Of a DNA stretch of 36,299 bases, positions 129-30,223 are shown in pieces. This stretch comes from a virus (Duplodnaviria; Caudoviricetes): the IMG/VR virus record IMGVR_UViG_3300037851_000010, positions 1 through 36,299 of that record; one strand, given 5' to 3'. Positions within the stretch are counted from its first letter, which is position 1. Each line of letters opens with the position of its first letter. The position numbers and the translations under genes are program-made. The notes under the pieces were generated by a model, which saw nothing but the letters and a program-made list of their open reading frames with translations, did not search any database and had not been told where the DNA came from.

Positions 129-575
129 GCAGGTGTGGGTGGTGCTTCAACAATAAAACTAACTGCAGATTTAGCAGCTAATACAGTAGGTACAGCAGCT
201 ATATGTACTGGTATGGCTTTAAGTGTAACTGCTGGAAGTTATTATTTTTTTAGATTTAATGTTTTATATCAAGCCGCTGTTACGACTACTGGAATTAAAC
301 TAGGGCTTACGTTCCCTGCTGTGACTAGCTTTGCAGGAACTGTAATCGCATTGAACTCTGGTGCCGCTTCTGTAGTTTACGGAAGAATAACTACCTCTGG
401 TGGATTGGTTACTGGAGCAGGAACACCAGTTGCTAACACAACATATATGGCGGAGATACTTGGCTCTATTCTTCCTTCTGCCAATGGGACTATTCAGGTA
501 ACTTATGGCACAGAGGTAGGAGGCTCAGCCGTAACTGTGAAACAAGGCTCTAACGGATTACTGTTCACTTTATGA
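1..575 (+). CDS. C-terminal part of collagen-like virion fibre/decoration protein (true start 35987, wraps the origin; ~276 aa)
   Basis: Frame of ORF 135..575 is continuous with ORF starting at ATG 35987; G-X-Y repeats followed by a small beta-rich Gly/Thr/Ala domain. Confidence 0.8.
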   Translation, partial: VGERGSQGSQGSQGSASTVPGPTGPTGPTGVGERGSQGSQGSAGVGGASTIKLTADLAANTVGTAAICTGMALSVTAGSYYFFRFNVLYQAAVTTTGIKLGLTFPAVTSFAGTVIALNSGAASVVYGRITTSGGLVTGAGTPVANTTYMAEILGSILPSANGTIQVTYGTEVGGSAVTVKQGSNGLLFTL

Positions 576-1147
576 GAATATCTTTGGGTATTGCTACAAG
601 AGGTGAAGTTTGTATTGAGACTACGATGGCTTTGATGCACCTTCTGAAAGAAACACCGCACGAGTTCCATCTTAATTTTCACAAAGGAACTTATCTCGGT
701 GATATGAGAAACGCTATGCTTGAGGAGGCTAGAGCTATGAAAGCTGATTACCTGTTCTTCGTAGATACAGACGTTATATTCCCTCCTGATGGGCTTAATA
801 GACTCTTAGCACGCAATAAGGACATTATAGGTGGAATGTATAATATGAAGGTAATTCCACCAGTTAACACGATTAAGATGGCAGATGAAAACGGAAAGAT
901 AATAGCAGTCAAAGACTTTGATGTTCCTACTAAACTATTTCAATGCTATGCAATCCCGTCCGGCTTTATGCTGATTAAACTGGATGCAATTAAAGACTTA
1001 AAGAAACCATTTAACTTCGACTACGACCAGAACGGAGAATTTATTGGTGAAGATGTGGGTTTTTGTAAAAGATGTCACGATATAGGATTGGAAATCTGGT
1101 GCGACCCGACAATAAATATAGGTCATATTGGAAGTTATGTGTATTAA
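572..1147 (+). CDS. GT-A fold (GT2-like) glycosyltransferase
   Basis: YLFFVDTDV (DxD), GEDVGFC, C-terminal IGHIG; ATGA overlap with upstream collagen gene. Confidence 0.85.
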   Translation: MRISLGIATRGEVCIETTMALMHLLKETPHEFHLNFHKGTYLGDMRNAMLEEARAMKADYLFFVDTDVIFPPDGLNRLLARNKDIIGGMYNMKVIPPVNTIKMADENGKIIAVKDFDVPTKLFQCYAIPSGFMLIKLDAIKDLKKPFNFDYDQNGEFIGEDVGFCKRCHDIGLEIWCDPTINIGHIGSYVY

Positions 1148-2160: not shown

Positions 2161-3063
2161 ATGGCATTTCCTACAGGTACGCATACAGCGACCACGTTGG
2201 CTTCATTTATCCCTGAATTATGGGGACAGAGGATCAACGATTTTATGAGAAGCAAGCTCGTCATGGCTTCCTTCTTCGTAGATAGGAGTTCAGAATTAGC
2301 CGATGGTGGCGACATTCTCTATACTCCTAACATGACTGAAATGACTGCTAATGCTAAATCAGATGCAACAGCAGTAACCCTCAACTACCCTACTGACACT
2401 AAGATTACTCTTACTGTTAATCAGTGGTATGAAGTATCATTTGCGATAGAAGATCGGGATGCAGCTCAGGCTAAGAGGTCTTACTACATCCAAGAGAACT
2501 ATGCTAAGGGTGCAGGATTCGCAGCCGCCAAGAAATTGGAAGTTGCGATCGCTGCCTTGTTCCTTGGTTTCTCGCAAGTTGTTGGTTCTTCAGTAGCTTT
2601 ACTCGCAGATTCAGATATCAGAAATGCTATCGCCTATCTCGAATCAGCTAATGTTGATACCACTTCCGATTGTGCGTTCTTCGTCCATCCTAACGTTTTC
2701 TGGAAGCACTTACAGTCAATAGATAAATTCTCATTGGCTGTTAACTCACCAGTTAACGATCCGACAGCGAAGAGACCGCAAGCGACCCTATATGGTATTC
2801 CTGTATATGTAACGAGCAATATTCAGTACATTTCAGAGACAACTGGTAGAGCAAACGCATTGGCTCACAAAGACGCTATCCATTGGGCAACATCTCCTTT
2901 AGGAGCTGGCTCAGAAGGACCTTCTGTAACAGGAAGTATGGGTGTCAGAGTGCAGTCGAACTATATGCCTGATTTCCTTTCAACTCTTACAACCGCAGAT
3001 ATTCTGTATGGTGTAATAGAGAACAGAGACACTTCGGGTGTATATATGAAGTCCAGTACATAA
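2161..3063 (+). CDS. Major capsid protein (HK97 fold, P22/T7-like)
   Basis: FIPELWGQ N-terminal motif, GDILYTP, FFVHP, LYGIPVYVT, DILYG; 300 aa. Confidence 0.85.
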   Translation: MAFPTGTHTATTLASFIPELWGQRINDFMRSKLVMASFFVDRSSELADGGDILYTPNMTEMTANAKSDATAVTLNYPTDTKITLTVNQWYEVSFAIEDRDAAQAKRSYYIQENYAKGAGFAAAKKLEVAIAALFLGFSQVVGSSVALLADSDIRNAIAYLESANVDTTSDCAFFVHPNVFWKHLQSIDKFSLAVNSPVNDPTAKRPQATLYGIPVYVTSNIQYISETTGRANALAHKDAIHWATSPLGAGSEGPSVTGSMGVRVQSNYMPDFLSTLTTADILYGVIENRDTSGVYMKSST

Positions 3064-3085
3064 CGTTAAACAATGGTTTAATTGT

Positions 3086-3127
3086 CTCGATGGTTAGGAA
3101 ACAAACCTCCCAAACCATCGGGTTTGT
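3086..3127 (+). promoter_or_regulatory. Post-capsid hairpin / possible pseudoknot or attenuator
   Basis: CGATGGTT/AACCATCG stem; loop ACAAACC complementary to downstream GGTTTGT. Confidence 0.5.
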
Positions 3128-3150: not shown

Positions 3151-3459
3151 ATGGGCGGAGTAGTTATAGCTAAGGATATTAAAAAAACTAAAGAGATGAT
3201 TGACTTAGCCGGAAACGTAATAGATCCTCAAACTAAAAGAGTCATCAAGAAAGAACCTCCAGAATACATACCACCACCACCTCACGTTGTTGAGGCGTGG
3301 AAGAAAGAGAGGCAAGAAGAATCGCATTTTGCTACCACAGACGACAGGATAAACGAGATAAAGAGTTCTGGCTTGGGTGATAAAATCGAGAAAATGATAG
3401 AATCTAAAATCAATAAGTTAATCGAAGATAAAATAGAAGAAGTATTTAAGAGACTATGA
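3151..3459 (+). CDS. Hypothetical protein
   Basis: 102-aa ORF, ATGA-coupled to next gene. Confidence 0.7.
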   Translation: MGGVVIAKDIKKTKEMIDLAGNVIDPQTKRVIKKEPPEYIPPPPHVVEAWKKERQEESHFATTDDRINEIKSSGLGDKIEKMIESKINKLIEDKIEEVFKRL

Positions 3460-4523
3460 AAAAAGTATTCTTTTGTAACACGCTTATGGGCGGTTGCCAT
3501 TATGTCAGGTCGTTAATACCCATGAGGGAACTAGGGGCTGACGGTGATAAAACCTCATTAAGAACTGATAAGATAGATGACCAGACCAGAGCCAGAGCAG
3601 TTTTAGATGCTGATATTGTAGTCTTTCACAGACCTAACGATGATAGAGCTTTAGAGATTGCTAAGATATTAAAGAAGCAAGGCAAGAAGATTGTAATGGA
3701 TAATGACGATACCTATAAGGGTTTTGATTTAACTAAACTCGGTAAACTCGCAGATAAGTTCGGGCAAGTAGAAAAAGCTATTGATGTATTCGGTAAAGAA
3801 GCGGACCTAATAACTTGTTCGACTGAGTTTCTTAAACAGGAATACTCAAGATTAAATCCCAATGTAGTAGTTCTTCCTAATTGTGTTGACCCTGACGATT
3901 GGCCAGAAGAAGACGAGATACTAAGGAATAATAGCGAAAAGATTAGAATAGGATTTGTAGGTTCAGTCGGACTTCATACTGATATACAGGCGTTTATTCC
4001 AGTATTAGATTATCTAAAGACTCGCAAGGATGTTCAGCTAGTTGTTTTTGCACTTCCGGCTGACACTAAAGAATCTCATGATGTTCACAATTATTATAAG
4101 CCTGAATTTGAATTCTGGATGTCTTATAACGTAGAATGGCAACCGTTTGTGCCGATACAAGATTATGTAGAAACTCTAAATAATCTAAAGCTAGACCTTC
4201 TACTTATACCAAGATCCGATGACTACTTTAATCGTTGTAAGTCTAATCTGAAGTTCCTAGAAGCCTCGATGCTTCAGATACCTGTAGTAGCTCAGGGATT
4301 CAAAGACGGAAACTCTCCCTATCAAGATACAGAGGACTCTAAATATATGAAAGTTGTAACAGATAATTCTAAATGGTTAGAAGAAATAATACCACTAATA
4401 GAATCAAAAGAACTAAGGATAGCTCAAGGTAAGAAAGCTAGAGAGTATGTTCTATCTCGATACCAGATAAAAGATAACATTCATAAGTGGGTAGAGGCCT
4501 ATGATAACCTATTCTCCAAGTAG
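3456..4523 (+). CDS. GT-B fold (GT4-like) glycosyltransferase
   Basis: VVFHR, DNDD, DLITCSTEFL, VLPN, RIGFVGS, FNRCKSNLKFLEAS. Confidence 0.9.
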   Translation: MKKVFFCNTLMGGCHYVRSLIPMRELGADGDKTSLRTDKIDDQTRARAVLDADIVVFHRPNDDRALEIAKILKKQGKKIVMDNDDTYKGFDLTKLGKLADKFGQVEKAIDVFGKEADLITCSTEFLKQEYSRLNPNVVVLPNCVDPDDWPEEDEILRNNSEKIRIGFVGSVGLHTDIQAFIPVLDYLKTRKDVQLVVFALPADTKESHDVHNYYKPEFEFWMSYNVEWQPFVPIQDYVETLNNLKLDLLLIPRSDDYFNRCKSNLKFLEASMLQIPVVAQGFKDGNSPYQDTEDSKYMKVVTDNSKWLEEIIPLIESKELRIAQGKKAREYVLSRYQIKDNIHKWVEAYDNLFSK

Positions 4524-5043
4524 ATTTGAAAAACCACCTCACGTTCTTGATGTCCCGTCAGCGTGGAAAGGACTAGAATGGATAATTAGAGATATTTTTA
4601 TTACTTTCGGATTAAAAGGTGAAAGAGCATTAGAATTCGGTGTAGAGTTCGGTTATTCAATCGTGGCTCTATCGAACTACTTTAAAGAGATAGTTGGAGT
4701 CGATACCTTCAAGGGAGATATCCACGCTGGCACTAGCGTAGAAGGATTATATGAGGCAGTAAAAGAGGCCGTTCCTAAGAACGTCAGACTAATAGAATCA
4801 GATTATAAAGATTATAAAGACGATACTATCTATGAGTTGATTCACGTTGATATAGTCCACACATACGAAGATACATTTGCTTGCGGAGACTGGGCGTTAA
4901 ATCATTCAAAGCTAGTTTTATTCCACGATACAGAATCTTTCCCGGACGTTAAAAAAGCAGTAGACGACTTAGCTGAGAAACATAATGCAGTATTTTATAA
5001 TTATCCGCATAACAACGGATTAGGCATATTATGGAAAGATTAA
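4501..5043 (+). CDS. Class I SAM-dependent methyltransferase (Methyltransf_24-like; probable sugar O-methyltransferase)
   Basis: LEFGVEFGYS motif I, GVDTFKGD, IHVDIVHTYE, FHD. Confidence 0.85.
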   Translation: MITYSPSRFEKPPHVLDVPSAWKGLEWIIRDIFITFGLKGERALEFGVEFGYSIVALSNYFKEIVGVDTFKGDIHAGTSVEGLYEAVKEAVPKNVRLIESDYKDYKDDTIYELIHVDIVHTYEDTFACGDWALNHSKLVLFHDTESFPDVKKAVDDLAEKHNAVFYNYPHNNGLGILWKD

Positions 5044-5639
5044 CTATCGTCATACCCCATAGGATGTCGGAGGATGCTAAAATAACGCTTGATTCGCTTA
5101 AAAACGCCTCGTACAGAGACTTTAAGGTCGTAGTAGTAGCAGACCAGGGGAAGGGTGCAAATTGGGCCAGAAACGAGGGTTTTAAGAGTTGCGATACTGA
5201 GTTCGTTCTTTTTAGCGATAACGACATAAACTGGACCGATACGGGCATAGAATCAATGATTTATATGCTAGATCATTTCCCTAGAGCTTCGTATTCTTAC
5301 GGACGCTTTATAGTAGACGGAGTTATATGGGGTCATCAAGTGTTCAATCCGGTTAAACTTCTGACCGAGAATTTTGTATCAACTATGAGTATTATCCGTT
5401 CAGAAGACTTTAGATTATGCGGTGGGTTCGATGAATCTCTTGTGGGCTTTCAGGATTGGGACTTATGGCTGAATCTTTTAATCAATCACAAAAAGCGTGG
5501 AGTCTATTGTAATGAGTTAATCTTTACTACCGAACCAAGAGTAGGAATCTCCGCTCAAAGAAATAATATGGAATGTGCCAGAGTTTTAAATGATAAATAT
5601 AACCTTAAACTACCACGTTTTAACACGGGGTATCTATGA
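5031..5639 (+). CDS. GT2 glycosyltransferase
   Basis: TIVIP, GANWARNEG, FSDND, GGFDE, QDWDLW. Confidence 0.9.
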   Translation: MERLTIVIPHRMSEDAKITLDSLKNASYRDFKVVVVADQGKGANWARNEGFKSCDTEFVLFSDNDINWTDTGIESMIYMLDHFPRASYSYGRFIVDGVIWGHQVFNPVKLLTENFVSTMSIIRSEDFRLCGGFDESLVGFQDWDLWLNLLINHKKRGVYCNELIFTTEPRVGISAQRNNMECARVLNDKYNLKLPRFNTGYL

Positions 5640-6178
5640 TGCGTTTATTTATCTCAATTCACAATGACGACGAAGTTCTCTATGGGGCCTATTCGCTTTT
5701 GCGTGAAAAGCCTCTTGTTCTTATTGTTACTGATTCCTGGATTCAGCCACTTAGGGGCGATGTTGGTTGCTCGGCTGAAGAACGCAGACAGGAAACGATT
5801 AATGCGATGGCAATCCTTAAATGCCCGGTTGCTTTCCTCGGCATTAAAGACACGGAGCTTACAGAGGAACTACTCACTGAACGGCTCAAACCATTTGTCG
5901 GGAACTGGGAAGAAGTCTACGCACCAGCAATCCAGGGCGGCAATCCACAGCATGACATTGTCGGAAGAGTTGCACAAAAACTTTTCACCAATGTCCGATA
6001 TTATACGACTTACACGAAAACAGAACTCTGGACTAAAGGGGAGCGAGAAGTTATCCCTACTGAAGAAGAAAAAGTCCTTAAAACAAGAGCTTTAAACTGT
6101 TATAAGAGCCAGATAATGCTTCCTTCAACAAGGCCGCACTTCTTGGCTGTTATCGGAAAATCAGAATGGCTAATATAA
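5636..6178 (+). CDS. PIG-L/LmbE family deacetylase
   Basis: HNDDE (HPDDE-like), ERRQE, NPQH (HxDH-like), KTRALNCYKSQ. Confidence 0.85.
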   Translation: MMRLFISIHNDDEVLYGAYSLLREKPLVLIVTDSWIQPLRGDVGCSAEERRQETINAMAILKCPVAFLGIKDTELTEELLTERLKPFVGNWEEVYAPAIQGGNPQHDIVGRVAQKLFTNVRYYTTYTKTELWTKGEREVIPTEEEKVLKTRALNCYKSQIMLPSTRPHFLAVIGKSEWLI

Positions 6179-6285
6179 AATTGGGTAGACCAGAGGTGGT
6201 TAGACCATATCTAAGGCATATTCCTGGTAAAATTGGTGGTCATTGTGTACTACCGAACGCTAAATTATTAAAGGTCAGATTATGA
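6166..6285 (+). pseudogene. 39-aa remnant of a UDP-glucose/GDP-mannose-family nucleotide-sugar dehydrogenase
   Basis: MANIKLGRPEVVRPYLRHIPGKIGGHCVLPNAKLL...; GGHC catalytic motif without a Rossmann domain; stop overlaps next ATG. Confidence 0.6.
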
Positions 6286-6926
6286 GAAAGATATTTATAA
6301 CTCCTTATTTTGGCGACGCCCCATCTTGGTTTCCCGAATACAAGGAACACTTTGAGCAAACTTTAAGACCTGCCGGATACGATTGGTTATTAGATACTGA
6401 CCTTGATGGCTTTAAAAAACGGGTTAAAGATAGGTTAGGAATAGATTATTTAGGCGAATGGGGATCGGGTAAGATATGGGACTTTCGTGGTTCGCTTGGC
6501 TATTTATACTCAGACGAAATAAAGGACTACGAATGGTGGGGACACACAGACTTCGATTGCGTTTACGGTGACGTTTCTAAATGGGTCACAGACGAGTTCC
6601 TTTCTGACCTAGACGTTCACTCAAACCACAATACTTATGTTATGGGAGCGTGGAGTCTTTACAGAAACACCCCGAAAGTAAATATGCTGTTTATGGAACG
6701 CTGGGACTGGAGAAGTTTTATGGCCCGTCCTGAACCAAACGGCTGGATAGAGAATGAGTTTTCAAGAGAGCTGGAAAAGTCTGGGCTTCGTTATAAATAC
6801 ACCTTCTGGCAGGGTAATCCCTACACAACTACACCTAACTTGAAGTTTGAAAATGGGAAGCTGTATCAAGATGGACACGAAATTATGATGTTCCACTTTA
6901 GAAGGTCTAAGAAATGGCCTATATGA
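6282..6926 (+). CDS. DUF6625-like probable glycosyltransferase
   Basis: ITPYFGDAPSW and WGHTDFDCVYGD motifs (DxD). Confidence 0.7.
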   Translation: MRKIFITPYFGDAPSWFPEYKEHFEQTLRPAGYDWLLDTDLDGFKKRVKDRLGIDYLGEWGSGKIWDFRGSLGYLYSDEIKDYEWWGHTDFDCVYGDVSKWVTDEFLSDLDVHSNHNTYVMGAWSLYRNTPKVNMLFMERWDWRSFMARPEPNGWIENEFSRELEKSGLRYKYTFWQGNPYTTTPNLKFENGKLYQDGHEIMMFHFRRSKKWPI

Positions 6927-7399
6927 AAATAGTACTCTACGCTAGAAGAAATATGGGCTTAGTTGTTCTTTCATACCTAGTAGCTAAGGGTCACGAGGTT
7001 AAAGTTATATCCGACGATGAAGTAGCTGGATTAGCTCAGATGTTAAACTGTCCTGTAGTCAACTTCGACACAATGGGTGAATTTGATTTATTCATCTGCT
7101 GTCACGGGAACAAGATTATTGATAAGAAGTATCTGAATAACAAGTTTATCAACATTCATCCGTGCTTATATAAATACAAAGGACACAACCCTATTAAAAG
7201 GTATATCGAAAGCAAGGATCAGTCAGGCTCGGTTGAATCCCAGTGGATGGTCGAAGAAGTAGACGCTGGGGAAATCATACATCAGGAGTTCTTTACGACT
7301 CCCGTACTAACAACCTATGCAGAATTTTATAATATCGCTCTGCCGTATTATCTAAGGTGCATAGATAAAACTCTCAATGAAATATCCAAAAGAACATAA
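6923..7399 (+). CDS. Formyltransferase (FMT-core; probable sugar N-formyltransferase)
   Basis: FINIHP and EEVDAGEII motifs; single domain; ATG 6923 gives ATGA overlap. Confidence 0.85.
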   Translation: MKIVLYARRNMGLVVLSYLVAKGHEVKVISDDEVAGLAQMLNCPVVNFDTMGEFDLFICCHGNKIIDKKYLNNKFINIHPCLYKYKGHNPIKRYIESKDQSGSVESQWMVEEVDAGEIIHQEFFTTPVLTTYAEFYNIALPYYLRCIDKTLNEISKRT

Positions 7400-8012
7400 T
7401 CCATATCTAATTGTAGACGAATTTGAAAGGAGAATCGCTGATTGGGCTGGGGCCAAGTATGGAATAGCCGTCGAGTCTGGAACGGCTGCAATCTTTTTGA
7501 GCTTAATGTACATAAAAGAGAAGCTGGGTTGCATTGACAAGATAATGATTCCGAAGCATACCTATCCGTCGGTCCCGTGTTCAATAATCCATGCCGGAGG
7601 GAAGGTTGTATGGAGCGACAAGAAGTGGAAAGGCGAATACGAACTACAACCACTGGGCATTTGGGACTCAGCACTTCGTTTTAGAAAGGGTATGTATCAC
7701 GGGGGGTTCCAATGCCTTTCGTTCCACATCAAGAAACACCTACCTATTGGCCGGGGAGGAATGATACTTACGGACTCGCTAGAGGCCTCTAATTGGCTCA
7801 AGGTTGCACGATTCGATGGCAGACACCCTATTCCATTAAAAGACGATAATTTCACTCAATTAGGCTGGAATTGCTACATGGAGCCTTCTCAGGCCGCACG
7901 GGGGATTCAGTTGTTTGAGGTTCTAAGGAACAAGGAACTTAAAGATTTAAAAGTTGAAGAACAAAATTATCCTGACCTTAGCCGTTTCCCCATTTATCAA
8001 CAGAAAAAGTAA
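7377..8012 (+). CDS. Minimal DegT/DnrJ/EryC1/StrS sugar aminotransferase
   Basis: AVESGTAA, IPKHTYPSV, IWDSA, SFHIKKHLPIGRGGMI (PLP lysine region), GWNCYM. Confidence 0.85.
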   Translation: MKYPKEHNPYLIVDEFERRIADWAGAKYGIAVESGTAAIFLSLMYIKEKLGCIDKIMIPKHTYPSVPCSIIHAGGKVVWSDKKWKGEYELQPLGIWDSALRFRKGMYHGGFQCLSFHIKKHLPIGRGGMILTDSLEASNWLKVARFDGRHPIPLKDDNFTQLGWNCYMEPSQAARGIQLFEVLRNKELKDLKVEEQNYPDLSRFPIYQQKK

Positions 8013-8063
8013 AGACAAAATCACTAAAATGTGGTATTATATCAACAGATACTTAACAGGAGG
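8012..8063 (+). promoter_or_regulatory. Internal sigma70-like promoter plus Shine-Dalgarno for GNAT gene
   Basis: AAGACA(8012)-17-TG-G-TATTAT(8035); AGGAGG at 8058..8063. Confidence 0.55.
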
Positions 8064-8067
8064 CGTT

Positions 8068-8490
8068 ATGGAACTGCGACCTATGACAATGGAAGATGCT
8101 GATAAAATGCTGGAATGGAAAAACTATCCCGAAACTCGTATGTTCGCACTTAAATCTCACGCTGAGATTTACAGAGAAGACCATTTAAAATGGCTAGAAA
8201 AGAATATCCAGTATTTTCAAATAATCATTCATGATAACAAAGTGGCTGGGGCTATCCGTCTTGAAAACAACGAAATCTCTGTCTGGATTGATAAAGCGTT
8301 CAGAGGTATCGGGCTTGCTACCCAAGCTATTAAAGCGGTCAGCAGAGTCGGAACAATCGCTAGGATTGTTCCAGCCAATATTCCTTCCATAAAAGCATTT
8401 ATCCGATGCGGATTTGTACCCGAACAGTATGTGTCAAAACACGACCATATTCTCGGAGATACAAGTTATTATATTTTTATAAAACATTGA
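8068..8490 (+). CDS. GNAT N-acetyltransferase (PseH-like)
   Basis: LRPMTMEDADKMLEWKN, FRGIGLA (acetyl-CoA loop), NIPSIKAF; ATG 8068 after AGGAGG. Confidence 0.85.
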   Translation: MELRPMTMEDADKMLEWKNYPETRMFALKSHAEIYREDHLKWLEKNIQYFQIIIHDNKVAGAIRLENNEISVWIDKAFRGIGLATQAIKAVSRVGTIARIVPANIPSIKAFIRCGFVPEQYVSKHDHILGDTSYYIFIKH

Positions 8491-9014
8491 AAATAATACT
8501 AATCGGCTATCCAGGGTCGCAACAACTACTTCCGGCAAGCAAATACCTAACAACAAAATACTTGCCGGATTTTGATATTCATTATCTCAACTGGGCTGGA
8601 GATATAGAAGGTTGGTCTAATTTCATAGCCACCTATTTAACTCACTTGGACGACGAAAAGATAATCTTTGCTTTAGACGACTATCTTATAAACGGATTCG
8701 ATAAAGAGAAGTTTAGAGAAGCTCTCAAACTAGAACCTTGCGTGAAACTCTGTGAATCGACCCTGCAAGAGCATAAAGAATATCCAGTTACTACACAATT
8801 CACAATCTGGAACAGGGAAGAATTGATTGATCTGTTAAGTAAAACCACAACTCCGTGGGATTTTGAAATTAACGGCTCTAAACTATTTAAAGGAAAATCT
8901 AATCTGCTTACCTGTATTCACTACGACGCTCATTCAGCCCTTTCAAGTCGTTGGAAGGGGGTGAACTGGTCAGAAGTGAAACAAGAAGATTTAGAAGTAA
9001 TACAAAACATATGA
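8487..9014 (+). CDS. Probable GT-A fold glycosyltransferase
   Basis: IIFALDDYLI, IWNRE, TPWDFE; TTG 8487 overlaps upstream TGA. Confidence 0.55.
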   Translation: MKIILIGYPGSQQLLPASKYLTTKYLPDFDIHYLNWAGDIEGWSNFIATYLTHLDDEKIIFALDDYLINGFDKEKFREALKLEPCVKLCESTLQEHKEYPVTTQFTIWNREELIDLLSKTTTPWDFEINGSKLFKGKSNLLTCIHYDAHSALSSRWKGVNWSEVKQEDLEVIQNI

Positions 9015-9835
9015 AATACTTAGTTACGGGAGGGTCTGGATTCTTAGGGCAGGAGCTTATTAAGAGGATTAATGGCGAGGTCAGGGTTTTAGCTCGTAAT
9101 GAGGGAAAGCTAGTGGAACTCAAAGAGAAATTTCCTAATATTGAAATCATGACCGGAGATGTAGCCGACTCCTATACTTGTGACCGAGCAGTTAAGGATG
9201 TAGACGGAATATATCATTTAGCAGGTCAAAAACACGTAGGATTAGCAGAGGAGAATGTAAGAGAGTGCATAGATACTAATATTCCGATAGCACTTCTCGA
9301 AGCTACTCGTAAATATAAACCCAAGTTCATTATAGGAATCTCTACCGATAAAGCCGCATCGAGAAAAGGTGTCTATGGCTGTACTAAGTTTCTAATGGAG
9401 CGTCTTTTTGATGAGTATTCTAAACTGAACCCCGAAACCAAATATCGTATTGTAAGATATGGAAATGTACTTTATTCCACAGGTTCTGTGCTTTGTAAGT
9501 GGAAAGAGAAGATTAAACAAGGTGGTATTATCACCATAACTGACCCTGAGGCTACGAGGTTTTTTTGGACAGTTGACCAAGCCGTAGACCTTATATTTGA
9601 ATGTCTCAAAAAGGCCGTAGACTCAAAACCTTACGCAACTAATATGAAAGCTATGAAAATGGGTAATTTATTGCAGGCTATGATAAATAAATACGCTGAC
9701 GGTGACAGTGAATACCCAGTCGGAATTATAGGTCTTCAGCCAGGCGAAAATATGCACGAAATAATCACCGAAGACGGTATTGACTCATCACAAGCTGAAA
9801 AGTTTACTCAAGAAGAAATATATGAACTTATCTAG
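9011..9835 (+). CDS. PseB/CapD-like NDP-sugar (UDP-GlcNAc) 4,6-dehydratase (Polysacc_synt_2)
   Basis: TGGSGFLG, HLAGQKHV, ISTDKA, YGCTK, VRYGNV, TRFF, GLQPGENMHE. Confidence 0.9.
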   Translation: MKYLVTGGSGFLGQELIKRINGEVRVLARNEGKLVELKEKFPNIEIMTGDVADSYTCDRAVKDVDGIYHLAGQKHVGLAEENVRECIDTNIPIALLEATRKYKPKFIIGISTDKAASRKGVYGCTKFLMERLFDEYSKLNPETKYRIVRYGNVLYSTGSVLCKWKEKIKQGGIITITDPEATRFFWTVDQAVDLIFECLKKAVDSKPYATNMKAMKMGNLLQAMINKYADGDSEYPVGIIGLQPGENMHEIITEDGIDSSQAEKFTQEEIYELI

Positions 9836-10349
9836 CGTGACATTCGTAGGAATAACTAGAGACAAAGAATACCCGAAAGAGATTGATACCTCTTGGTTTG
9901 ATGAGGTTTTAACCGTAACTGAATGTCCGAATATCTATACACGCTATACAGAAGCCGAAAAAGCAAAGAATGATATAATTTATGTACAAGATGACGATTG
10001 TATCATAGACTATAAGGAACTCTGGAAACACTATAATGGACAGTTAACTAACGGAATGACTATGCACCACCAGATGTATTATGGGCCTACTGGAGTTACC
10101 CTAGTCGGTTGGGGGTGTTTCTTTCCTAAGACAATGCTCAAGAATATAGATAAATACATAAACAAGTATGGAAAAGACAAGCACTTGATGAGAGAAGCCG
10201 ACAGGATATTCACATTTCTAAATCAACCGCACAATACGATAATTATGGAACACCAAGACTTCAAGCCACAATATGGTCGAATGTGGAATGAAAAAGAACA
10301 TTGGGATTCTATGAGAGAAGCAATCGTAAAATTGAACTTGATTATTTAA
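9822..10349 (+). CDS. Probable GT-A fold glycosyltransferase
   Basis: IIYVQDDDCII (DxD), LVGWG, READRIF. Confidence 0.6.
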   Translation: MNLSSVTFVGITRDKEYPKEIDTSWFDEVLTVTECPNIYTRYTEAEKAKNDIIYVQDDDCIIDYKELWKHYNGQLTNGMTMHHQMYYGPTGVTLVGWGCFFPKTMLKNIDKYINKYGKDKHLMREADRIFTFLNQPHNTIIMEHQDFKPQYGRMWNEKEHWDSMREAIVKLNLII

Positions 10350-10351
10350 AA

Positions 10352-10360
10352 TGTTATAAT
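10352..10360 (+). promoter_or_regulatory. Extended -10 promoter TGTTATAAT, probably leaderless (ATG 10368)
   Basis: TGnTATAAT + 7 nt + ATG. Confidence 0.65.
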
Positions 10361-10367
10361 TAACTAT

Positions 10368-10910
10368 ATGGAAACATACCCAAGAAGGATAGTTTTACAC
10401 AACGAAAAGCTGACAAAGCTACTAAAGGAGAAGACTGAGATGATATTGGAGGGTAGAAAGATATCAGAAGACATAGATGTCCTACAGGAAGAGATGGACA
10501 GCGTAGACAAAGAGGTTCAGGCCGTAGAAGCTACAGTTCAAACTGAAGATTTAAAGGCTGAGGCTGAAGAATTGACCGTAGAATTCAACTCCGTGATGAG
10601 TAAAATGGAAGATAATCAGAAAAGACTCCGAGAGAGGATGATAGCTGTAGTTCCGCAAGAATTAAGAGATAAATACGAGCAGAAGAAGCAGAAGAAAGAA
10701 GAACTTGAAAGAGAAAGAAACAAGATAGCTCTAAAAGCCCAAAAGTGGAACGATAAGATAATACCTTTAGGCAGAAAGTTAATGAGTCCATTTATAGAAG
10801 ATGAGTTTGAAGATTACGACACGATAAGATTCGAGAATGGGGAAGTAGTGGCGACACTATTCTCTCACATAGACGATTTTAAAAAGAATTTCAGGAAGAA
10901 GCGGAAGTAG
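10368..10910 (+). CDS. Coiled-coil hypothetical protein
   Basis: E/K-rich heptad-like 180 aa. Confidence 0.75.
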   Translation: METYPRRIVLHNEKLTKLLKEKTEMILEGRKISEDIDVLQEEMDSVDKEVQAVEATVQTEDLKAEAEELTVEFNSVMSKMEDNQKRLRERMIAVVPQELRDKYEQKKQKKEELERERNKIALKAQKWNDKIIPLGRKLMSPFIEDEFEDYDTIRFENGEVVATLFSHIDDFKKNFRKKRK

Positions 10911-10921
10911 CGGATGTTTTG

Positions 10922-10963
10922 GGTAGCGACCCCCACTTTTCCGCAATGTCGGGGGTCGCTGCC
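10922..10963 (+). promoter_or_regulatory. 13-bp GC-rich hairpin with CCGC-containing loop
   Basis: GGTAGCGACCCCC/GGGGGTCGCTGCC, loop ACTTTTCCGCAATGTC; no U tract. Confidence 0.7.
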
Positions 10964-10996
10964 TTAAGGATTCTTTAGCGGAGAAGGACTAAAGAA

Positions 10997-11728
10997 GTGG
11001 CACAGTTTAGCGATACAACTAATAAGAACGGTATCATTCAGAAGATTGAATTTATTACTGGATTAGGAGATGCTGCGATTTCAGGTAATTCAACGCTCTT
11101 AAAGCAGTTTACGGGCCTAGTGAATGACTGGCTCGGAGTAATGGCCGGAGACTTATTACAGGTTGATGGACGTTACGAATGGGATGACACGAACTATACG
11201 GATCAACCGATAGCCACTTTCAGTTTAGTTGCCGACCAAGCCGGTTATTCCTTTATGGAAGACGCTAATTCAGCTCAGATTTTAGATATTACAAGGGTAG
11301 AGGTAAAGAACGCAGCCTCTGGTGATTGGATTAAATTAAGACCGATAGACCAGAGAGAGATATCTCAAGGCTACACAGAGTGGATGGAAAGCTCTGGGAT
11401 ACCGATTTATTATGATTTTATAGGGACAGTATTAACTCTTTTTCCAGCTTCAAGCTATAACTCTACAGACGGAGCTAAGGTTTGGTTTAAGAGAGAGCCT
11501 GCATATTTTGATTCAACCGACACAACTGATGAGCCGGGATTTTGCACGCCTTTTCAAAAGATTCTATGGCTTGGACCTGCTTATGATTATTCGGTGCTTA
11601 GTGGGAAGCCTAACGTAGCTTTAAGACAAGAGATTGAGCTAGAGAGAGAACGTTTACGAGAATTTTATTCAAGGCGAGGTAAATACGAGCAACCCCGATT
11701 GGTCGGGCAAGTTCGTTCTTCAAGATGA
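10997..11728 (+). CDS. Head-tail adaptor (tail tubular protein A-like), putative
   Basis: Position after head module; GIPIYY..LTLFP pattern; helical C-terminus. Confidence 0.6.
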   Translation: MAQFSDTTNKNGIIQKIEFITGLGDAAISGNSTLLKQFTGLVNDWLGVMAGDLLQVDGRYEWDDTNYTDQPIATFSLVADQAGYSFMEDANSAQILDITRVEVKNAASGDWIKLRPIDQREISQGYTEWMESSGIPIYYDFIGTVLTLFPASSYNSTDGAKVWFKREPAYFDSTDTTDEPGFCTPFQKILWLGPAYDYSVLSGKPNVALRQEIELERERLREFYSRRGKYEQPRLVGQVRSSR

Positions 11729-11901
11729 GCTTAAGTAATTTAGCCAAAACAGCAGCAACACTAGCGAATCTAGTAAAGACATCTATTAAGACCTTTCTTC
11801 TAAAAGAAGATGGGTTTTATTTATTACTTGAAACGGGTGATAGGATTAGATTAGACGGATCAGAGAATCAAATATCAAACTTAGCAAAAACATCGGCTTA
11901 A
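11725..11901 (+). CDS. 58-aa small virion/tail protein
   Basis: ATGA overlap; LLKEDGFYLLLETGDRI core flanked by (S/A)NLxKT repeats. Confidence 0.65.
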   Translation: MSLSNLAKTAATLANLVKTSIKTFLLKEDGFYLLLETGDRIRLDGSENQISNLAKTSA

Positions 11902-11917
11902 GCGGAAAGCACTAAAT

Positions 11918-13027
11918 ATGGCAGATACAAAAATTTCAGCACTCCCTACGGGTCAATTTCAGTCAACAGACTATATCCCCTATGTGGATGGTGCTTCGGG
12001 TATAACTAGAAAAGCTACTAAAGCTGATCTTAGAGGCTCTCAGGGTTCACAGGGTAGTGCTTCAACTGTCGCTGGGCCGCAAGGCTCTCAGGGTTCACAG
12101 GGTAGTGCGTCTACTGTGCCTGGTCCTCGGGGTAGTCAAGGTTCGGCTGGTATGGATGGAGCAGATGCGGTAGCTGGTAAACTTCCTTCATCTTTTGTCT
12201 CGACCACAACTCCAGTAGGGACTACATCTGTAACACTCGAAGATGTGACTAATATGTCTACTACTATAACGTTAGATGAATCAGTAGAGATAGGCGTATT
12301 TGCATCGTTTGAGATAGAAACACAGTCTGGTTCTTCTGCTTCAGTTATTGGCTTAGCGATAAGCATAGATGGCGTTGATGGGGATGTATTCGAAAGGTAT
12401 CTAAGTGGCTCTAACGACAAAGGAATAGGTGCTATTACTTACAGAAGTGCAGAACTAGCTGCAGGAACATATACTGTAAAATTAAGATTTCAAAGAGTTT
12501 CTGGAACGACAACTCCTGGGATAAATAATGCAGCGATGTTAGTAATGGCTATGCAAGGAGCTAAAGGTGAAACTGGTCCTATGGGTCCGATTGGAAATCA
12601 AGGAAGTATGGGTTCAGTTGGTAGTCAAGGTAGCCAGGGGTCAGCTTCTACGGTACCTGGACCAACTGGGGCAACTGGGGCGACTGGACCGACGGGATAT
12701 GTAGTTCCGAGAGTAACATCACAAGCAACAGCTTCAGCACCTACGCCAGATGCAGATACGACTGATGTATTCTCTCTAACAGCTCAAGGTGAAACAGCAG
12801 CTTTTGTAACTCCTTCAGGAACTCCGTCTAATAAACAGAAACTTATAATTCAGATTCTACCTACGGGTGGAAATATAAACGTAACTTGGTCTACGGGATA
12901 TACGGCTGGAGGAGTAGCTCTACCAACATCAGCAACTCAAGCTAAGAAAACTACACTAGGATTTATGTATGATACAGATAATTCCTTCAATACTTGGGTA
13001 TTGTTGGCTAAAGCAGAGCAAGCATAA
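11918..13027 (+). CDS. Collagen-like tail fibre
   Basis: MADTKISAL N-terminus; two G-X-Y blocks (GSQ/GPT) separated by a beta domain; Ser/Thr-rich. Confidence 0.8.
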   Translation: MADTKISALPTGQFQSTDYIPYVDGASGITRKATKADLRGSQGSQGSASTVAGPQGSQGSQGSASTVPGPRGSQGSAGMDGADAVAGKLPSSFVSTTTPVGTTSVTLEDVTNMSTTITLDESVEIGVFASFEIETQSGSSASVIGLAISIDGVDGDVFERYLSGSNDKGIGAITYRSAELAAGTYTVKLRFQRVSGTTTPGINNAAMLVMAMQGAKGETGPMGPIGNQGSMGSVGSQGSQGSASTVPGPTGATGATGPTGYVVPRVTSQATASAPTPDADTTDVFSLTAQGETAAFVTPSGTPSNKQKLIIQILPTGGNINVTWSTGYTAGGVALPTSATQAKKTTLGFMYDTDNSFNTWVLLAKAEQA

Positions 13028-13030
13028 AAT

Positions 13031-13729
13031 ATGGCATCAATAACTATTTATCCAGATGCTCATCCAGAATCAACTTCTGTAGATGGGTTTGAAAGAAAAG
13101 CTGGTGCAGGTGATACTTGGTCAGCATATAGGGATGCAACAGTCGGAACTCAAACGACCAATCTTGACGACGGAGCATCAGCAGGTGAAGCAATAGAAAT
13201 TGGCAGAAATAATTCTGGTTGGGAAGATTTTAGAAGAGTAATAGTTCTGTTTGACGCTTCATCTATTCCTTCTGGAGCTACAATAGACTCGGCTACATAT
13301 AGTTTTGTTGCAACTGCCAAGGGTGATAATGCTACAACTCCACAATCCATAGCTTTAGTTTCTTCAAGTCCTGCAAGTAATACAGAATTAGTAGCAGAAG
13401 ACTATGACCAGCTAGGAACTACATTATTAGCCACCGCAAAAACTATATCTTCTATAACGGCAGATTCTTCTACATATAACGATATGGCTTTAAATGCTGC
13501 TGGATTATCTTATATTCAAACGGCTATAGGTGCGAGCGGTATTATAAAACTTGGATTAAGAATGGAATCTGATAGAGCTAATTCAGAACCTAGTTTCGGT
13601 TCAGGCTCTCAGTATGCTTATGTCGGACATATCTTTGCAGACAACGGATCGTTAAAGCCTAAATTGGTAATAAATTATACTTTACCAGTAAATTCAAACT
13701 TTTTAATGTTTATGTCTCCAGATAGATAA
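13031..13729 (+). CDS. Virion accessory protein, DNRLRE/CBM-like beta-sandwich
   Basis: LFDASSIPSGATIDSAT and C-terminal KPKLVINY. Confidence 0.6.
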   Translation: MASITIYPDAHPESTSVDGFERKAGAGDTWSAYRDATVGTQTTNLDDGASAGEAIEIGRNNSGWEDFRRVIVLFDASSIPSGATIDSATYSFVATAKGDNATTPQSIALVSSSPASNTELVAEDYDQLGTTLLATAKTISSITADSSTYNDMALNAAGLSYIQTAIGASGIIKLGLRMESDRANSEPSFGSGSQYAYVGHIFADNGSLKPKLVINYTLPVNSNFLMFMSPDR

Positions 13730-13730
13730 T

Positions 13731-14255
13731 ATGAAAACCATGCATGGAAATAAAATATCAACAAAAAAATTATGGGAAAATCCAGAATACAGAGAGCATA
13801 TGAGACTTGCACATATTGGTCAGGTTGCGTGGAATAAAGGTAAAAAAACAGGGTTAGCTCCAAAGAGTGCATTTAAGAAAGGGCAAAAAGGAGCAAGATT
13901 AGGAAAGAAAAATTCGCCAGAGCATATTGAAAAAATGAGATTGGCTAGAAAGGGTAAGCTAAGTTTAAAAACAAGGGGTGCGAATAACTGGAACTGGAAG
14001 GGTGGAATAACGCCAATAAACAATCAAATTAGACACTCATTAGAATATAAACTATGGCGTGAAGCGGTTTTTAAAAGAGATAACTGGACTTGCATCTGGT
14101 GCGGTCAAAGAAGTGGTAGACTTCATGCAGATCATATCAAGCCATTCTCGCTTTATCCAGAACTACGCTTTGCACTAGATAACGGTAGAACACTTTGTAT
14201 AAATTGTCATTATAAAACAAACACTTATGGAGGAAAAAAACAAAAAACAAAATAA
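13731..14255 (+). mobile_element. Free-standing HNH homing endonuclease with NUMOD3-like basic N-terminus
   Basis: WREAVFKRDNWTCIWCG, HADHIKP, NGRTLCINCH; AWNKGKK repeats. Confidence 0.9.
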
Positions 14256-15150
14256 GGCAATCTCGGTGGTGATGATATGTAAAAACGAATCGGCCCTAAT
14301 AGAGCGAGCCTTAAAGTCCGTAGAAGGATGCGATGAGCTTATAATCTGTGATACTGGTTCAACCGACAATACCGTTGAAATAGCTAAAAAATATACTGAC
14401 AAGGTTTGCACTGAATACAAGTGGAACGCTAACTTCGCAGAGGCGAGAAACCATGCAAAATCTCATGCTACGGGGGATTGGATTTTATCGTTGGATTCGG
14501 ACGAATACCTGCACGACTTCTCAGAAGTCCGTAGAGTTGTAGAACTCGCTAAAGATTGCGTAGGAGTTATTCTACGAGGAGAACACGGCAAAGCAGACTT
14601 CAGGTTTCCAAGACTCTTTAGAAATACGCCAGACATTCAGTGGTTCGGTGCAGCACATAATCATCTGGGGGTTACTAAAGAAGGCGAAGACAAAGGAATT
14701 AACGTTTCGGGTGAGGGCGAACTTGTAGGTAACGTAACTATAACCTATGGATTCTCTCCAGCTCACGCCTTAGATCCCGACAGGACTCTTAATATACTTT
14801 TAAATGAAGTGAAAGACCCAACTAAAGTTAGAGAGATGTATTACTTGGGTAGAGAATACTGGTATAAGGGAAACTATAAAGAAGCCGCTAAATGGTTCGG
14901 AAAGCATGTTCAATCTACGAACTTCACAGCAGAAAAAGCAGACTCATTTCTTACTATGTCTAAATGTTATTCAGCTCTAGGATCTGATGATGATGCAAGA
15001 GATGCGTGCTTACAGGCAATCAATCTAAATCCTAATTTCAAAGAAGCAATAAGGTGGATGGGTCATATATCATACCCTCAGAACGCAAAGAGGTGGTATG
15101 ATTGGGCTGAATCAGCAAATAATACTAATGTTTTATTTATAAGAGAATGA
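14227..15150 (+). CDS. GT2 glycosyltransferase with C-terminal TPR repeats (protein glycosyltransferase-like)
   Basis: MICKNE, DTGSTDNT, FAEARN, LDSDE, RLFRN; YYLGREY and AINLNPN TPR motifs. Confidence 0.9.
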   Translation: MEEKNKKQNKAISVVMICKNESALIERALKSVEGCDELIICDTGSTDNTVEIAKKYTDKVCTEYKWNANFAEARNHAKSHATGDWILSLDSDEYLHDFSEVRRVVELAKDCVGVILRGEHGKADFRFPRLFRNTPDIQWFGAAHNHLGVTKEGEDKGINVSGEGELVGNVTITYGFSPAHALDPDRTLNILLNEVKDPTKVREMYYLGREYWYKGNYKEAAKWFGKHVQSTNFTAEKADSFLTMSKCYSALGSDDDARDACLQAINLNPNFKEAIRWMGHISYPQNAKRWYDWAESANNTNVLFIRE

Positions 15151-23352: not shown

Positions 23353-24120
23353 CTAGATTGAAACGTGTATATCGTGTTTCTTCTTACCTTCTAATCTAAC
23401 TCTTGGCGAGCCTAGTTTTGTTGGGGCCATCATTCCTTTCTCGGCATACGAATCATTCCATTCTAAATAAGAACCGCAATCTACATACCAGATTCTTCTT
23501 TTAAGAACTTCTTTTGACTGTATGGACGGGTAATAAACGTCTTGTGGTGCAACTGCTAACTGGTGATTATGCGAACCAAAATAGACATCGATTCCTTCGA
23601 CTATGTCTCTGAGTTTTGTTACTCGGTTTAGTTTTCCTCCGATAGTTCCTCCTCCTCCAGTAGTGTGATGAAAATATAAAAAGTAATTTTGTTTCCACCC
23701 CCCGTGTTTTCCAAGACTAGGTTTTCCGACTTTAACTCTAACTACGGCAGACCATTTACAGTAAGGGATATTTAAAGACAAACAAAGATATTGCATCGGA
23801 CTGACTCCGAACATATCTAGCATACGAGCTTCGTGATTTCCATCTGTGGCTCCGATAATTTGAGAAGCGTAGGGTCTAAATAAATCTATAGCCGCTTGAT
23901 ATTCGTCCGTATTAGTAGAGAAGGGGTCTGTTTTAGAAATACGAGAAGCAACATTAAATATATCTCCATTTAAAAATATCCTAGCATTGGGTCTTTCTTT
24001 AACCCAGTCAAGATAGCCCATTAAAATACTTTTCTTAAAAGCCTTATCTCCTAGATGCAGGTCTCCAATCGGAATGATATATGCTTTATCTTCCGGAATC
24101 TCACATTCTAAGTATTGCAT
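23353..24120 (-). CDS. Calcineurin-like metallophosphoesterase
   Basis: GDLH, NGD, GNHE, FHH, SHNH motifs. Confidence 0.9.
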   Translation of the reverse strand: MQYLECEIPEDKAYIIPIGDLHLGDKAFKKSILMGYLDWVKERPNARIFLNGDIFNVASRISKTDPFSTNTDEYQAAIDLFRPYASQIIGATDGNHEARMLDMFGVSPMQYLCLSLNIPYCKWSAVVRVKVGKPSLGKHGGWKQNYFLYFHHTTGGGGTIGGKLNRVTKLRDIVEGIDVYFGSHNHQLAVAPQDVYYPSIQSKEVLKRRIWYVDCGSYLEWNDSYAEKGMMAPTKLGSPRVRLEGKKKHDIHVSI

Positions 24121-29683: not shown

Positions 29684-30223
29684 ATGAATAAAAAATATCG
29701 GCTTACAAAAAATAAAAAGAAATGGTGCGGAATAACTCTCTACCAGATAGAGGCAACCGCTTCATTCGGTCTAGTAGTGAAAGGAGAACTCGGAGGATAT
29801 ATTGAGAAGGAAGCAAACCTATCGCAAGGGGGCAATGCGTGGGTGTATGACAATGCGAGGGTGTATGGCGATGCGAGGGTGTCTGGCGATGCGAGGGTGT
29901 ATGGCGATGCGAGGGTGTCTGGCAATGCGTGGGTGTCTGGCGATGCGTGGGTGTATGGCGATGCGAGGGTGTCTGGCGATGCGTGGGTGTCTGGCAATGC
30001 GAGGGTGTCTGGCAAACTAAAACTTCTAGCAGGTTTCTTTTTCGGAATCCGCTATCACAAAGAAGAAATAAAGTTTACAAAGATAGATAATGATTATGAA
30101 CTGATTTACAAAGGATATGCTAAGTTCGGAGAAGAAGATGAAAAGAAAACTGAACTATTAAAGAAAGCTGACGAGTTGATTGTAAAAGCCGAGGAATTAA
30201 AATCAGAAGCGAATAAACTATAG
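29684..30223 (+). CDS. Hexapeptide-repeat (left-handed beta-helix) phage protein
   Basis: LYQIEA..GELGGYIE N-terminus; about 10 x [DN]A[RW]V[YS]G. Confidence 0.85.
   Translation: MNKKYRLTKNKKKWCGITLYQIEATASFGLVVKGELGGYIEKEANLSQGGNAWVYDNARVYGDARVSGDARVYGDARVSGNAWVSGDAWVYGDARVSGDAWVSGNARVSGKLKLLAGFFFGIRYHKEEIKFTKIDNDYELIYKGYAKFGEEDEKKTELLKKADELIVKAEELKSEANKL
29830..30014 (+). repeat. 18-nt coding tandem repeat
   Basis: GGC(G/A)ATGCG(A/T)GGGTGT(A/C)T units. Confidence 0.9.

Follow-up and report, generated by a model that had tools for sequence, protein, structure and literature searches.

Results

A glycosylation gene run between capsid and adaptor genes

We analysed a stretch of 36,299 nucleotides (hereafter the window), IMG/VR virus record IMGVR_UViG_3300037851_000010, in which a run of sugar-related genes follows the major capsid gene. 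The window comes from a freshwater metagenome run, as one virus record classed with direct terminal repeats, and is a near-complete 36-kb podovirus-like (short-tailed) phage. It encodes a terminase (32261), a portal-sized protein (33517), a capsid protein (2161), an adaptor (10997), collagen fibres, lysins and a DnaC-type replication module. CheckV rates it at 60% completeness only, and both ends fall inside a 90-nt collagen repeat. Relatives of 35–39 kb that are rated complete share its size and gene order, so that little of the phage is likely to be missing.

Twelve open reading frames (ORFs) with glycan-related assignments, all on the + strand and mostly overlapping by 4–23 nt, occupy positions 3456–10349. 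Two further glycosyltransferases (GTs; 572 and 14227) sit among the fibre genes, and the three stretches add up to 8,394 nt, or 23% of the genome. These figures agree with a preliminary description of the window, and all the genes that it had listed for the run were recovered in the order given. Of the up to seven GTs that it counted, four are firm and three are probable. The whole span 3456–15150 had been given for the candidate glycosylation system; its glyco-genes are real, but the adaptor, fibre and HNH genes inside it do not belong to such a system. The relevant features are:

572..1147, +, probable GT-A-like glycosyltransferase (weak Pfam GT matches, phrog_1574), adjoining a Ser/Thr-rich collagen fibre gene at the contig join
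1148..1159, +, extended -10-like motif ATGHTATAATWA, predicted start of a scaffold-capsid-cassette transcript (5 copies versus 0.04 expected)
2161..3063, +, major capsid protein (phrog_267, E 7e-19), candidate acceptor
3456..4523, +, core GT4 (GT-B), predicted priming transferase (phrog_7162, E 6e-37; under the Pfam cut-off)
4501..5043, +, S-adenosylmethionine (SAM) methyltransferase (Pfam Methyltransf_24), optional; L010 and L175 have no homolog
5031..5639, +, GT2 glycosyltransferase (PF00535, PF10111)
5636..6178, +, PIG-L family de-N-acetylase (PF02585); fused to GT2-TPR in other lineages
6166..6285, +, 39-residue remnant of a short UDP-sugar dehydrogenase with GGHC motif (match to relatives' dehydrogenases)
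6282..6926, +, DUF6625 protein, possible GT (PF20330, E 3.5e-22; DxD-like motif)
6914..7399, +, N-formyltransferase, catalytic domain alone, optional (PF00551, Formyl_trans_N); swaps with GNAT in relatives
7377..8012, +, mini-DegT pyridoxal phosphate (PLP) aminotransferase, 211 residues (Pfam DegT, model, motifs)
8068..8490, +, ATG start at 8068, GNAT N-acetyltransferase, weakly PseH-like (Pfam, NCBIfam); fused to mini-DegT in L200 and L201
8487..9014, +, conserved cassette protein, GT-A-like lead, DDY motif (GT2-like Atlas lead)
9011..9835, +, ATG start at 9011, UDP-GlcNAc 4,6-dehydratase of PseB/FlaA1 type (Polysacc_synt_2; TDK and YxxxK motifs)
9822..10349, +, GT-A-fold glycosyltransferase, EXTL/GT64-like (AlphaFold2 pLDDT 95; EXTL3 Z 12.6, rmsd 2.9, 162 aligned)
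10997..11728, +, head-tail adaptor (SU10_adaptor under cut-off; synteny); with ORF 10368 it marks the conserved right-hand edge of the cassette
11918..13027, +, collagen-like fibre protein, candidate acceptor (25% Ser+Thr; Ser/Thr in 15/24 Gly-X-Y triplets)
14227..15150, +, GT2-TPR (tetratricopeptide repeat) glycosyltransferase, predicted to act on protein (Pfam GT2+TPR; best PDB matches GmaR and SunS)

L-numbers denote loci of relatives compared with the window. The predicted structure of ORF 9822 is nearest to exostosin-like GlcNAc transferases. For ORF 8487, none of 56 family members matched Pfam and the sole lead is a GT2-like Atlas cluster (0.91, 25% of members). Profiles of both ORFs gave no significant match in PDB sequence searches. 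A homolog of GT572 lies directly 3' of the capsid gene in the Microcystis phage Mel-JY34.

The GT4 gene is a core gene and the cassette behind it is optional

A search with the capsid protein yielded 50 loci. In all 42 that were informative (at least 1 kb of downstream DNA), a GT4 gene was found 174–946 nt 3' of the capsid gene. Reciprocally, a search with GT4 gave 365 loci in IMG/VR, of which the best 80 were fetched and 73, being new, were examined; the capsid gene was upstream of GT4 in 70 of the 70 with enough upstream DNA. The two sets overlap in some contigs. The linkage to structural genes described for the window is kept in its relatives.

Loci that could be classified and have distinct GT4 sequences number 71; in 46 of them the adaptor module follows GT4 directly, and 25 hold extra genes. 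The locus has two layers, GT4 being the core gene and the cassette behind it optional. The window-type (PseB/DegT) cassette occurs in L010, L100, L171, L176 and L206 and, partially, in L098 and L101; the gene order of the window cassette is conserved in L010, L100, L171 and L175. Natural fusions were found in relatives (DegT-GNAT, GT2TPR-PIG-L, PseB-8487-9822). Another set of cassettes carries GT11, GT17, DUF3431, GDP-mannose dehydratase (Gmd), full-length DegT and cytidylyltransferase genes. Such other-type cassettes in L033, L040, L042, L043, L107, L113, L143, L164 and L166 include short GT11s (180–200 residues) and, in two, a SET-domain protein.

Trees were built with FastTree. For GT4, there are 8 window-type members if the window is counted, and 7 of them form one supported group together with one other-type locus. 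In the capsid tree, the window-type members require four changes; L010 and L098/L176 are there surrounded by phages that have no cassette. Grouping in one tree against scatter in the other suggests that GT4 and cassette have been swapped between capsid lineages, directly behind the capsid gene.

One copy of ATGHTATAATWA precedes the scaffold-capsid genes and the next is at 10351, just past the cassette, a spacing which suggests that the cassette would be on the capsid transcript. Sigma-70 promoter and terminator scans of the window were at chance level.

Several further observations concern this region. HNH-type genes lie in or near glyco-cassettes (window 13731–14255, L010:8323, L042:12043, L052:8460) and are possible drivers of cassette exchange. 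Two conserved genes (3151–3459 and 10368–10910) border GT4 or the cassette in most relatives, and are candidate decoration or assembly proteins, or acceptors. The capsid gene itself is interrupted by an insert in L001 (5270–6924), L037, L048, L049, L127, L134 and L170, with an HNH gene inside that of L037, which suggests introns or homing elements.

The predicted sugar is of the bacillosamine/altrosamine type

The dehydratase matched FlaA1/PseB best (E 3e-34), and has a short-chain dehydrogenase/reductase fold with intact TDK and YxxxK motifs. PseB is also its best NCBIfam match, at 147 bits, under the equivalog cut-off, and inversion at C5 is not readable from it. An enzyme of this UDP-GlcNAc 4,6-dehydratase type predicts a 2,4-diamino-2,4,6-trideoxyhexose (bacillosamine/altrosamine type) in place of the anthrose-like sugar initially proposed. 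Dehydratase, aminotransferase and acyltransferase form the established route to 2,4-diacylamido-2,4,6-trideoxyhexoses, as for the fibrils of Moumouvirus australiensis in the available text of PMC10117803.

The window cassette is a hybrid that holds both GNAT and formyltransferase, like L204, whereas most sisters hold one. The enzymes for the N-formyl/acetyl, O-methylated sugar of the preliminary description are present; the formyltransferase and the methyltransferase, like the dehydrogenase, are nevertheless optional across sister cassettes. Cassettes of the formyltransferase type often have no dehydratase, so that the keto-sugar may be host-derived there. Since no nucleotidyltransferase was found in the window, sugar donors must come from the host, and the system is not self-contained as had been supposed.

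The dehydrogenase remnant proposed earlier is real: the 39-residue ORF matches the tail of the relatives' short UDP-sugar dehydrogenases with scores of 69–88, reached by none of 500 shuffles. In sister cassettes this enzyme is itself short (228–253 residues) and stops shortly past the GGHC motif; it lacks the C-terminal domain, which in canonical UDP-sugar dehydrogenases binds UDP. The loss of parts in this enzyme and in mini-DegT could reflect economy of genome space, or enzymes that act on sugars after their transfer.

A half-size DegT aminotransferase

The preliminary description overlooked that, at 211 residues, the DegT protein is about half the normal length. A search restricted to 116–370 residues found 1,719 short relatives, the best 120 being 196–228 residues long; the single query gave zero viral matches, and an alignment query retrieved the family. 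Its three nearest Atlas clusters are 89–100% viral. The model (pLDDT 93) superimposes on sugar aminotransferases with Z about 20 and rmsd about 3 over about 200 residues, residues 4–211 covering about 25–330 of the target structures. Like DegT/DnrJ/EryC1/StrS aminotransferases (perosamine synthase, PseC, WlaRG), it has the fold, the PLP-binding Asp (D97) and Schiff-base Lys (K120), both kept in 67 of 67 members, and a predicted dimer; it is fold-type I. Unlike them, it has neither the N-terminal arm, nor an internal segment before the PLP Asp, nor most of the small domain, and its motifs are altered. Where perosamine synthase has GEGG and GxNxR, mini-DegT has GRGG and GxNxY, and DxAL stands in place of the common DegT motif DxAQ. 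Among the best 120 sequences, SxHxxK was found in 120, DxAL in 119, GRGG in 114, GxNxY in 120 and GEGG in none. Mini-DegT is a reduced DegT subfamily, and not a canonical member with a two-domain chain of 360–400 residues bearing GEGG and GxNxR.

The homodimer prediction scored 0.80 (best control 0.58), with contacts in 96% agreement and pLDDT 93. The dimer mark was reached by 20/30 solved pairs and 1/23 monomers, and a pass may reflect likeness to solved DegT dimers. Of 20 close loci with room, 19 have a GNAT or formyltransferase gene within 1.3 kb of mini-DegT. The corresponding figure for distant loci, in which these genes were detected with the window's enzymes only, was 4 of 25. These neighbours and the GNAT fusions in L200 and L201 make it probable that mini-DegT produces an amine for subsequent acylation; by its motifs, neighbours and model it looks catalytically active. 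A decayed gene was rejected in view of the 1,719 short relatives, the kept PLP Asp and Lys and the acyltransferase neighbours. A purely viral family was also rejected, as 7 loci are in GTDB genomes, two of them clear cellular polysaccharide loci.

Mini-DegT was also seen beside a radical SAM enzyme among GTs in L059, L063 and L086 (9709–16462, corresponding to ORF302-310 of phage S-SCSM2R, with an amidinotransferase in addition). The set possibly forms an oxidise-aminate-amidinate route for sugars, instead of antibiotic synthesis.

Candidate acceptors

The best PDB matches of GT2-TPR, which is placed among Ser/Thr-rich fibre genes, are GmaR (E 5e-20) and SunS (E 1.5e-11). Both glycosylate protein or peptide. 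The same or related enzymes occur inside head modules of unrelated phages, in the portal-capsid gap (L052, L094) or behind the capsid gene (L053, L095). A related cassette lies between head genes and adaptor in L056, and MW202801 and Mel-JY34 provide further head-module examples. In virion glycosylation of the Corndog/Che8 type, the acceptor Ser/Thr is located at the C-terminus of the subunit. Within the capsid protein, S/T298 is present in 38 of 38 sequences, yet there are 8 invariant S/T columns, this one included, and the C-terminal Ser is not distinctive.

No flippase and no base-modification enzyme was found in the PHROG scan (56 ORFs) or Pfam scans of the window, and the glyco-enzymes have no hydrophobic stretch of membrane length (maximum 19-residue Kyte-Doolittle mean 1.38), in accordance with what had been noted from the sequence. 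The only GtrB-like trace was a weak PHROG match of GT2-TPR (E 4e-4). Serotype conversion of the GtrABC type was rejected, there being no membrane flippase or membrane GT among the window glyco-proteins. According to the part of 10.1101/2023.12.21.572611 available, DNA-glycosylation clusters depend on a 5mC dioxygenase or ThyS. A ThyS homolog was found in 0 of 21 records (its control was detected in 10 of 14), and Tet_JBP in 0 of 21, with the positive control likewise silent; neither it nor a C5 methyltransferase gave a hit in the window scans. The cultured Flavobacterium phage immuto_2-6A holds a mini-DegT glyco-cluster; in the accessible text of 10.1101/2023.04.13.536721, the nucleosides reported for its DNA are dA, dC, dT and formyl-preQ1 only, none of them sugar-bearing.

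Other features of the genome

A fibre gene with GSQ/GPT collagen repeats crosses the contig join (35987–36299 and 1–575), where the repeat number is uncertain. Together with a collagen gene at 35283 and GT572 it makes up an insert between portal and scaffold that is not in L171. Positions 29684–30223 encode a YdcK beta-solenoid protein with 18-nt repeats, and the sole long gene on the minus strand (23353–24120) a calcineurin-like metallophosphoesterase. No integrase and no phage DNA polymerase was matched in the PHROG or Pfam scans of the window. A search for the capsid found it in none of 401 genomes of the phylum of G001 and none of 401 of the phylum of G003. Shine-Dalgarno-like motifs precede only 2 of 29 starts, which suggests a host poor in such motifs and names none; Patescibacteria and Bacteroidota are among such groups.

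Discussion

Gene content, folds, motifs, synteny and cassette variation are observed here directly. The explanation that we consider probable is that the phage glycosylates its own virion with a capsid-linked GT4 and an exchangeable amino-sugar cassette, activities, acceptor and sugar being deduced from sequences, models and analogy. The virion is favoured as target because of the capsid linkage, the head-module cassettes, the likeness to GmaR and SunS, the Ser/Thr-rich fibre setting and the precedent of mycobacteriophage Corndog. It is the best-supported target; the glycan coat on capsid and fibres that the preliminary description added to it stays a prediction. In this scheme, the capsid would be primed by GT4, whose gene keeps its place 3' of the capsid gene. 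The dehydratase would convert host UDP-GlcNAc to a 4-keto-6-deoxy sugar, which dimeric mini-DegT would aminate, and GNAT (or the formyltransferase) would acylate the amine to give the bacillosamine/altrosamine-type sugar. GT2, 9822, 8487 and DUF6625 might then lengthen the glycan chain and PIG-L and the methyltransferase tailor it; the Ser/Thr-rich fibres might be the substrates of GT2-TPR and GT572.

Virion glycosylation has been reported for mycobacteriophages Corndog, Che8 and Myrna (PMC12363180, PMC11256854, PMC12619734; available in part). In Corndog, the genes for an O-methyltransferase and three GTs are located between those for portal and protease (PMC4351075), and the virion proteins are glycosylated (as reported in PMC12363180). 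Like Corndog as presented in these excerpts, the window has soluble phage GTs and a methyltransferase in the head operon, the capsid acceptor being a prediction for the window. It differs from the three mycobacteriophages in its amino-sugar pathway, in a GT4 whose place behind the capsid gene is fixed, and in a cassette that varies across the clade. Actinophages were absent among the matches to GT2-TPR and GT572, and GT4 gave one Arthrobacter phage, at 24%. In the accessible part of PMC10117803, Ma467/Ma465/Ma466 of M. australiensis make up a UDP-diNAcBac pathway within Megavirinae fibril glycosylation clusters. Shared with the window are a short 4,6-dehydratase (278 versus 274 residues), aminotransferase, N-acetyltransferase, GTs and clade-specific clusters. 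Megavirinae, however, are giant eukaryotic viruses with full-length aminotransferases (352–388 residues) and their own UDP-GlcNAc supply, whereas the window is a 36-kb tailed phage with a 211-residue aminotransferase and a GNAT. The window holds a real, conserved system that by analogy would combine mycobacteriophage-like virion glycosylation with an amino-sugar pathway of giant-virus type. Literature searches, which covered few subscription papers and no supplements, found neither the clade nor the capsid-GT4 locus nor the short DegT described. Two things are new as far as these searches reach: a capsid-GT4 locus with exchangeable cassettes that extends across the clade, and a DegT family of half size.

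A number of observations weigh against virion glycosylation by the cassette. The evidence on the acceptor is all indirect. In L051/L179 and L207, mini-DegT cassettes of the formyltransferase type are flanked by helicase and terminase, the immuto_2-6A and S-SCSM2R clusters are outside structural modules within the stretches viewed, and some cellular polysaccharide loci hold mini-DegT. Distant GT4 homologs (24–26% identity) stand beside primase and polymerase in a Stephanstirmvirinae phage, and a hairpin past the capsid gene (about 3085–3125) may curb read-through. One gene of the window cassette is broken. Mini-DegT has lost about 45% of the canonical chain, and with GEGG and GxNxR changed as well its chemistry may differ. 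Finally, a PseB-like gene is missing within 3.5 kb of mini-DegT in 5 of 12 close loci, and L090 and L094 hold a dehydratase cassette without mini-DegT.

Remodelling of host glycans or proteins (lipopolysaccharide (LPS), S-layer, pilin precursors, cytoplasmic defence proteins) for superinfection exclusion or counter-defence is an unlikely alternative in our judgement. Similar cyanophage clusters have been published under such a reading: S-SCSM2R, whose cluster, like that of immuto_2-6A, holds a window-type short DegT among GTs (38% and 43% identity, respectively), has ORF305 described as an antibiotic gene of the AHBA-synthase family (3-amino-5-hydroxybenzoate) among 'cell wall synthesis' and 'antibiotic synthesis' genes, the available text making no mention of its short length or a virion link (PMC12801897). 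Mini-DegT does occur beside RmlA/RmlC or Wzm/Wzt in a few cellular polysaccharide loci (L080, L084), and soluble GTs could supply lipid-linked pathways of the host. Host remodelling, however, fits poorly with the invariant late position behind the capsid gene, with the 46 of 71 relatives that have GT4 and no cassette, and with a window in which no membrane, flippase or priming phospho-transferase gene and no integrase was found.

It is quite improbable that only the core GT4, perhaps with GT2-TPR, glycosylates the virion while the cassette is carried along as a passenger, or has a sugar pathway that is partly dead here. Most relatives lack a cassette, the dehydrogenase is a remnant and enzymes are shortened; but gene order is kept across four relatives, catalytic motifs are intact, fusions have arisen and GT4 travels together with the cassette. 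Sugar hypermodification of phage DNA against restriction is very improbable: there are phage GT-A and GT-B enzymes that glycosylate DNA, the phage formyltransferase DpdN has been proposed to act on a DNA base and distant GT4 homologs adjoin replication genes, but no hydroxyl-handle enzyme (ThyS with a working control, Tet_JBP with a silent one) or phage DNA polymerase was matched, and the reported immuto_2-6A nucleosides are sugar-free.

A more far-reaching version of virion glycosylation, which we hold to be doubtful, is a capsid 'serotype' locus. In it, a universal priming GT4 would be combined with glycan cassettes swapped by recombination like bacterial O-antigen loci, and virus-adapted half-size enzymes (mini-DegT, mini UDP-sugar dehydrogenase) without nucleotide-holding parts would perhaps tailor sugars after their transfer onto the particle. 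If so, many phage 'LPS/cell-wall/antibiotic' auxiliary genes would be virion-coat genes.

In the part of the literature covered, virion glycosylation of tailed phages is demonstrated only for a few mycobacteriophages. The cultured carriers immuto_2-6A, S-SCSM2R and Mel-JY34 make the question of a virion coat testable, and the 1,719-member mini-DegT family offers a compact enzyme for characterisation. If the phage does glycosylate its own virion, many so-called auxiliary metabolic genes would need reassigning, and glycan coats would be a common, selected trait of small phages, in a widespread aquatic clade with 365 GT4 loci in IMG/VR, with possible roles in adsorption, decay, grazing and evasion of capsid-sensing defences.

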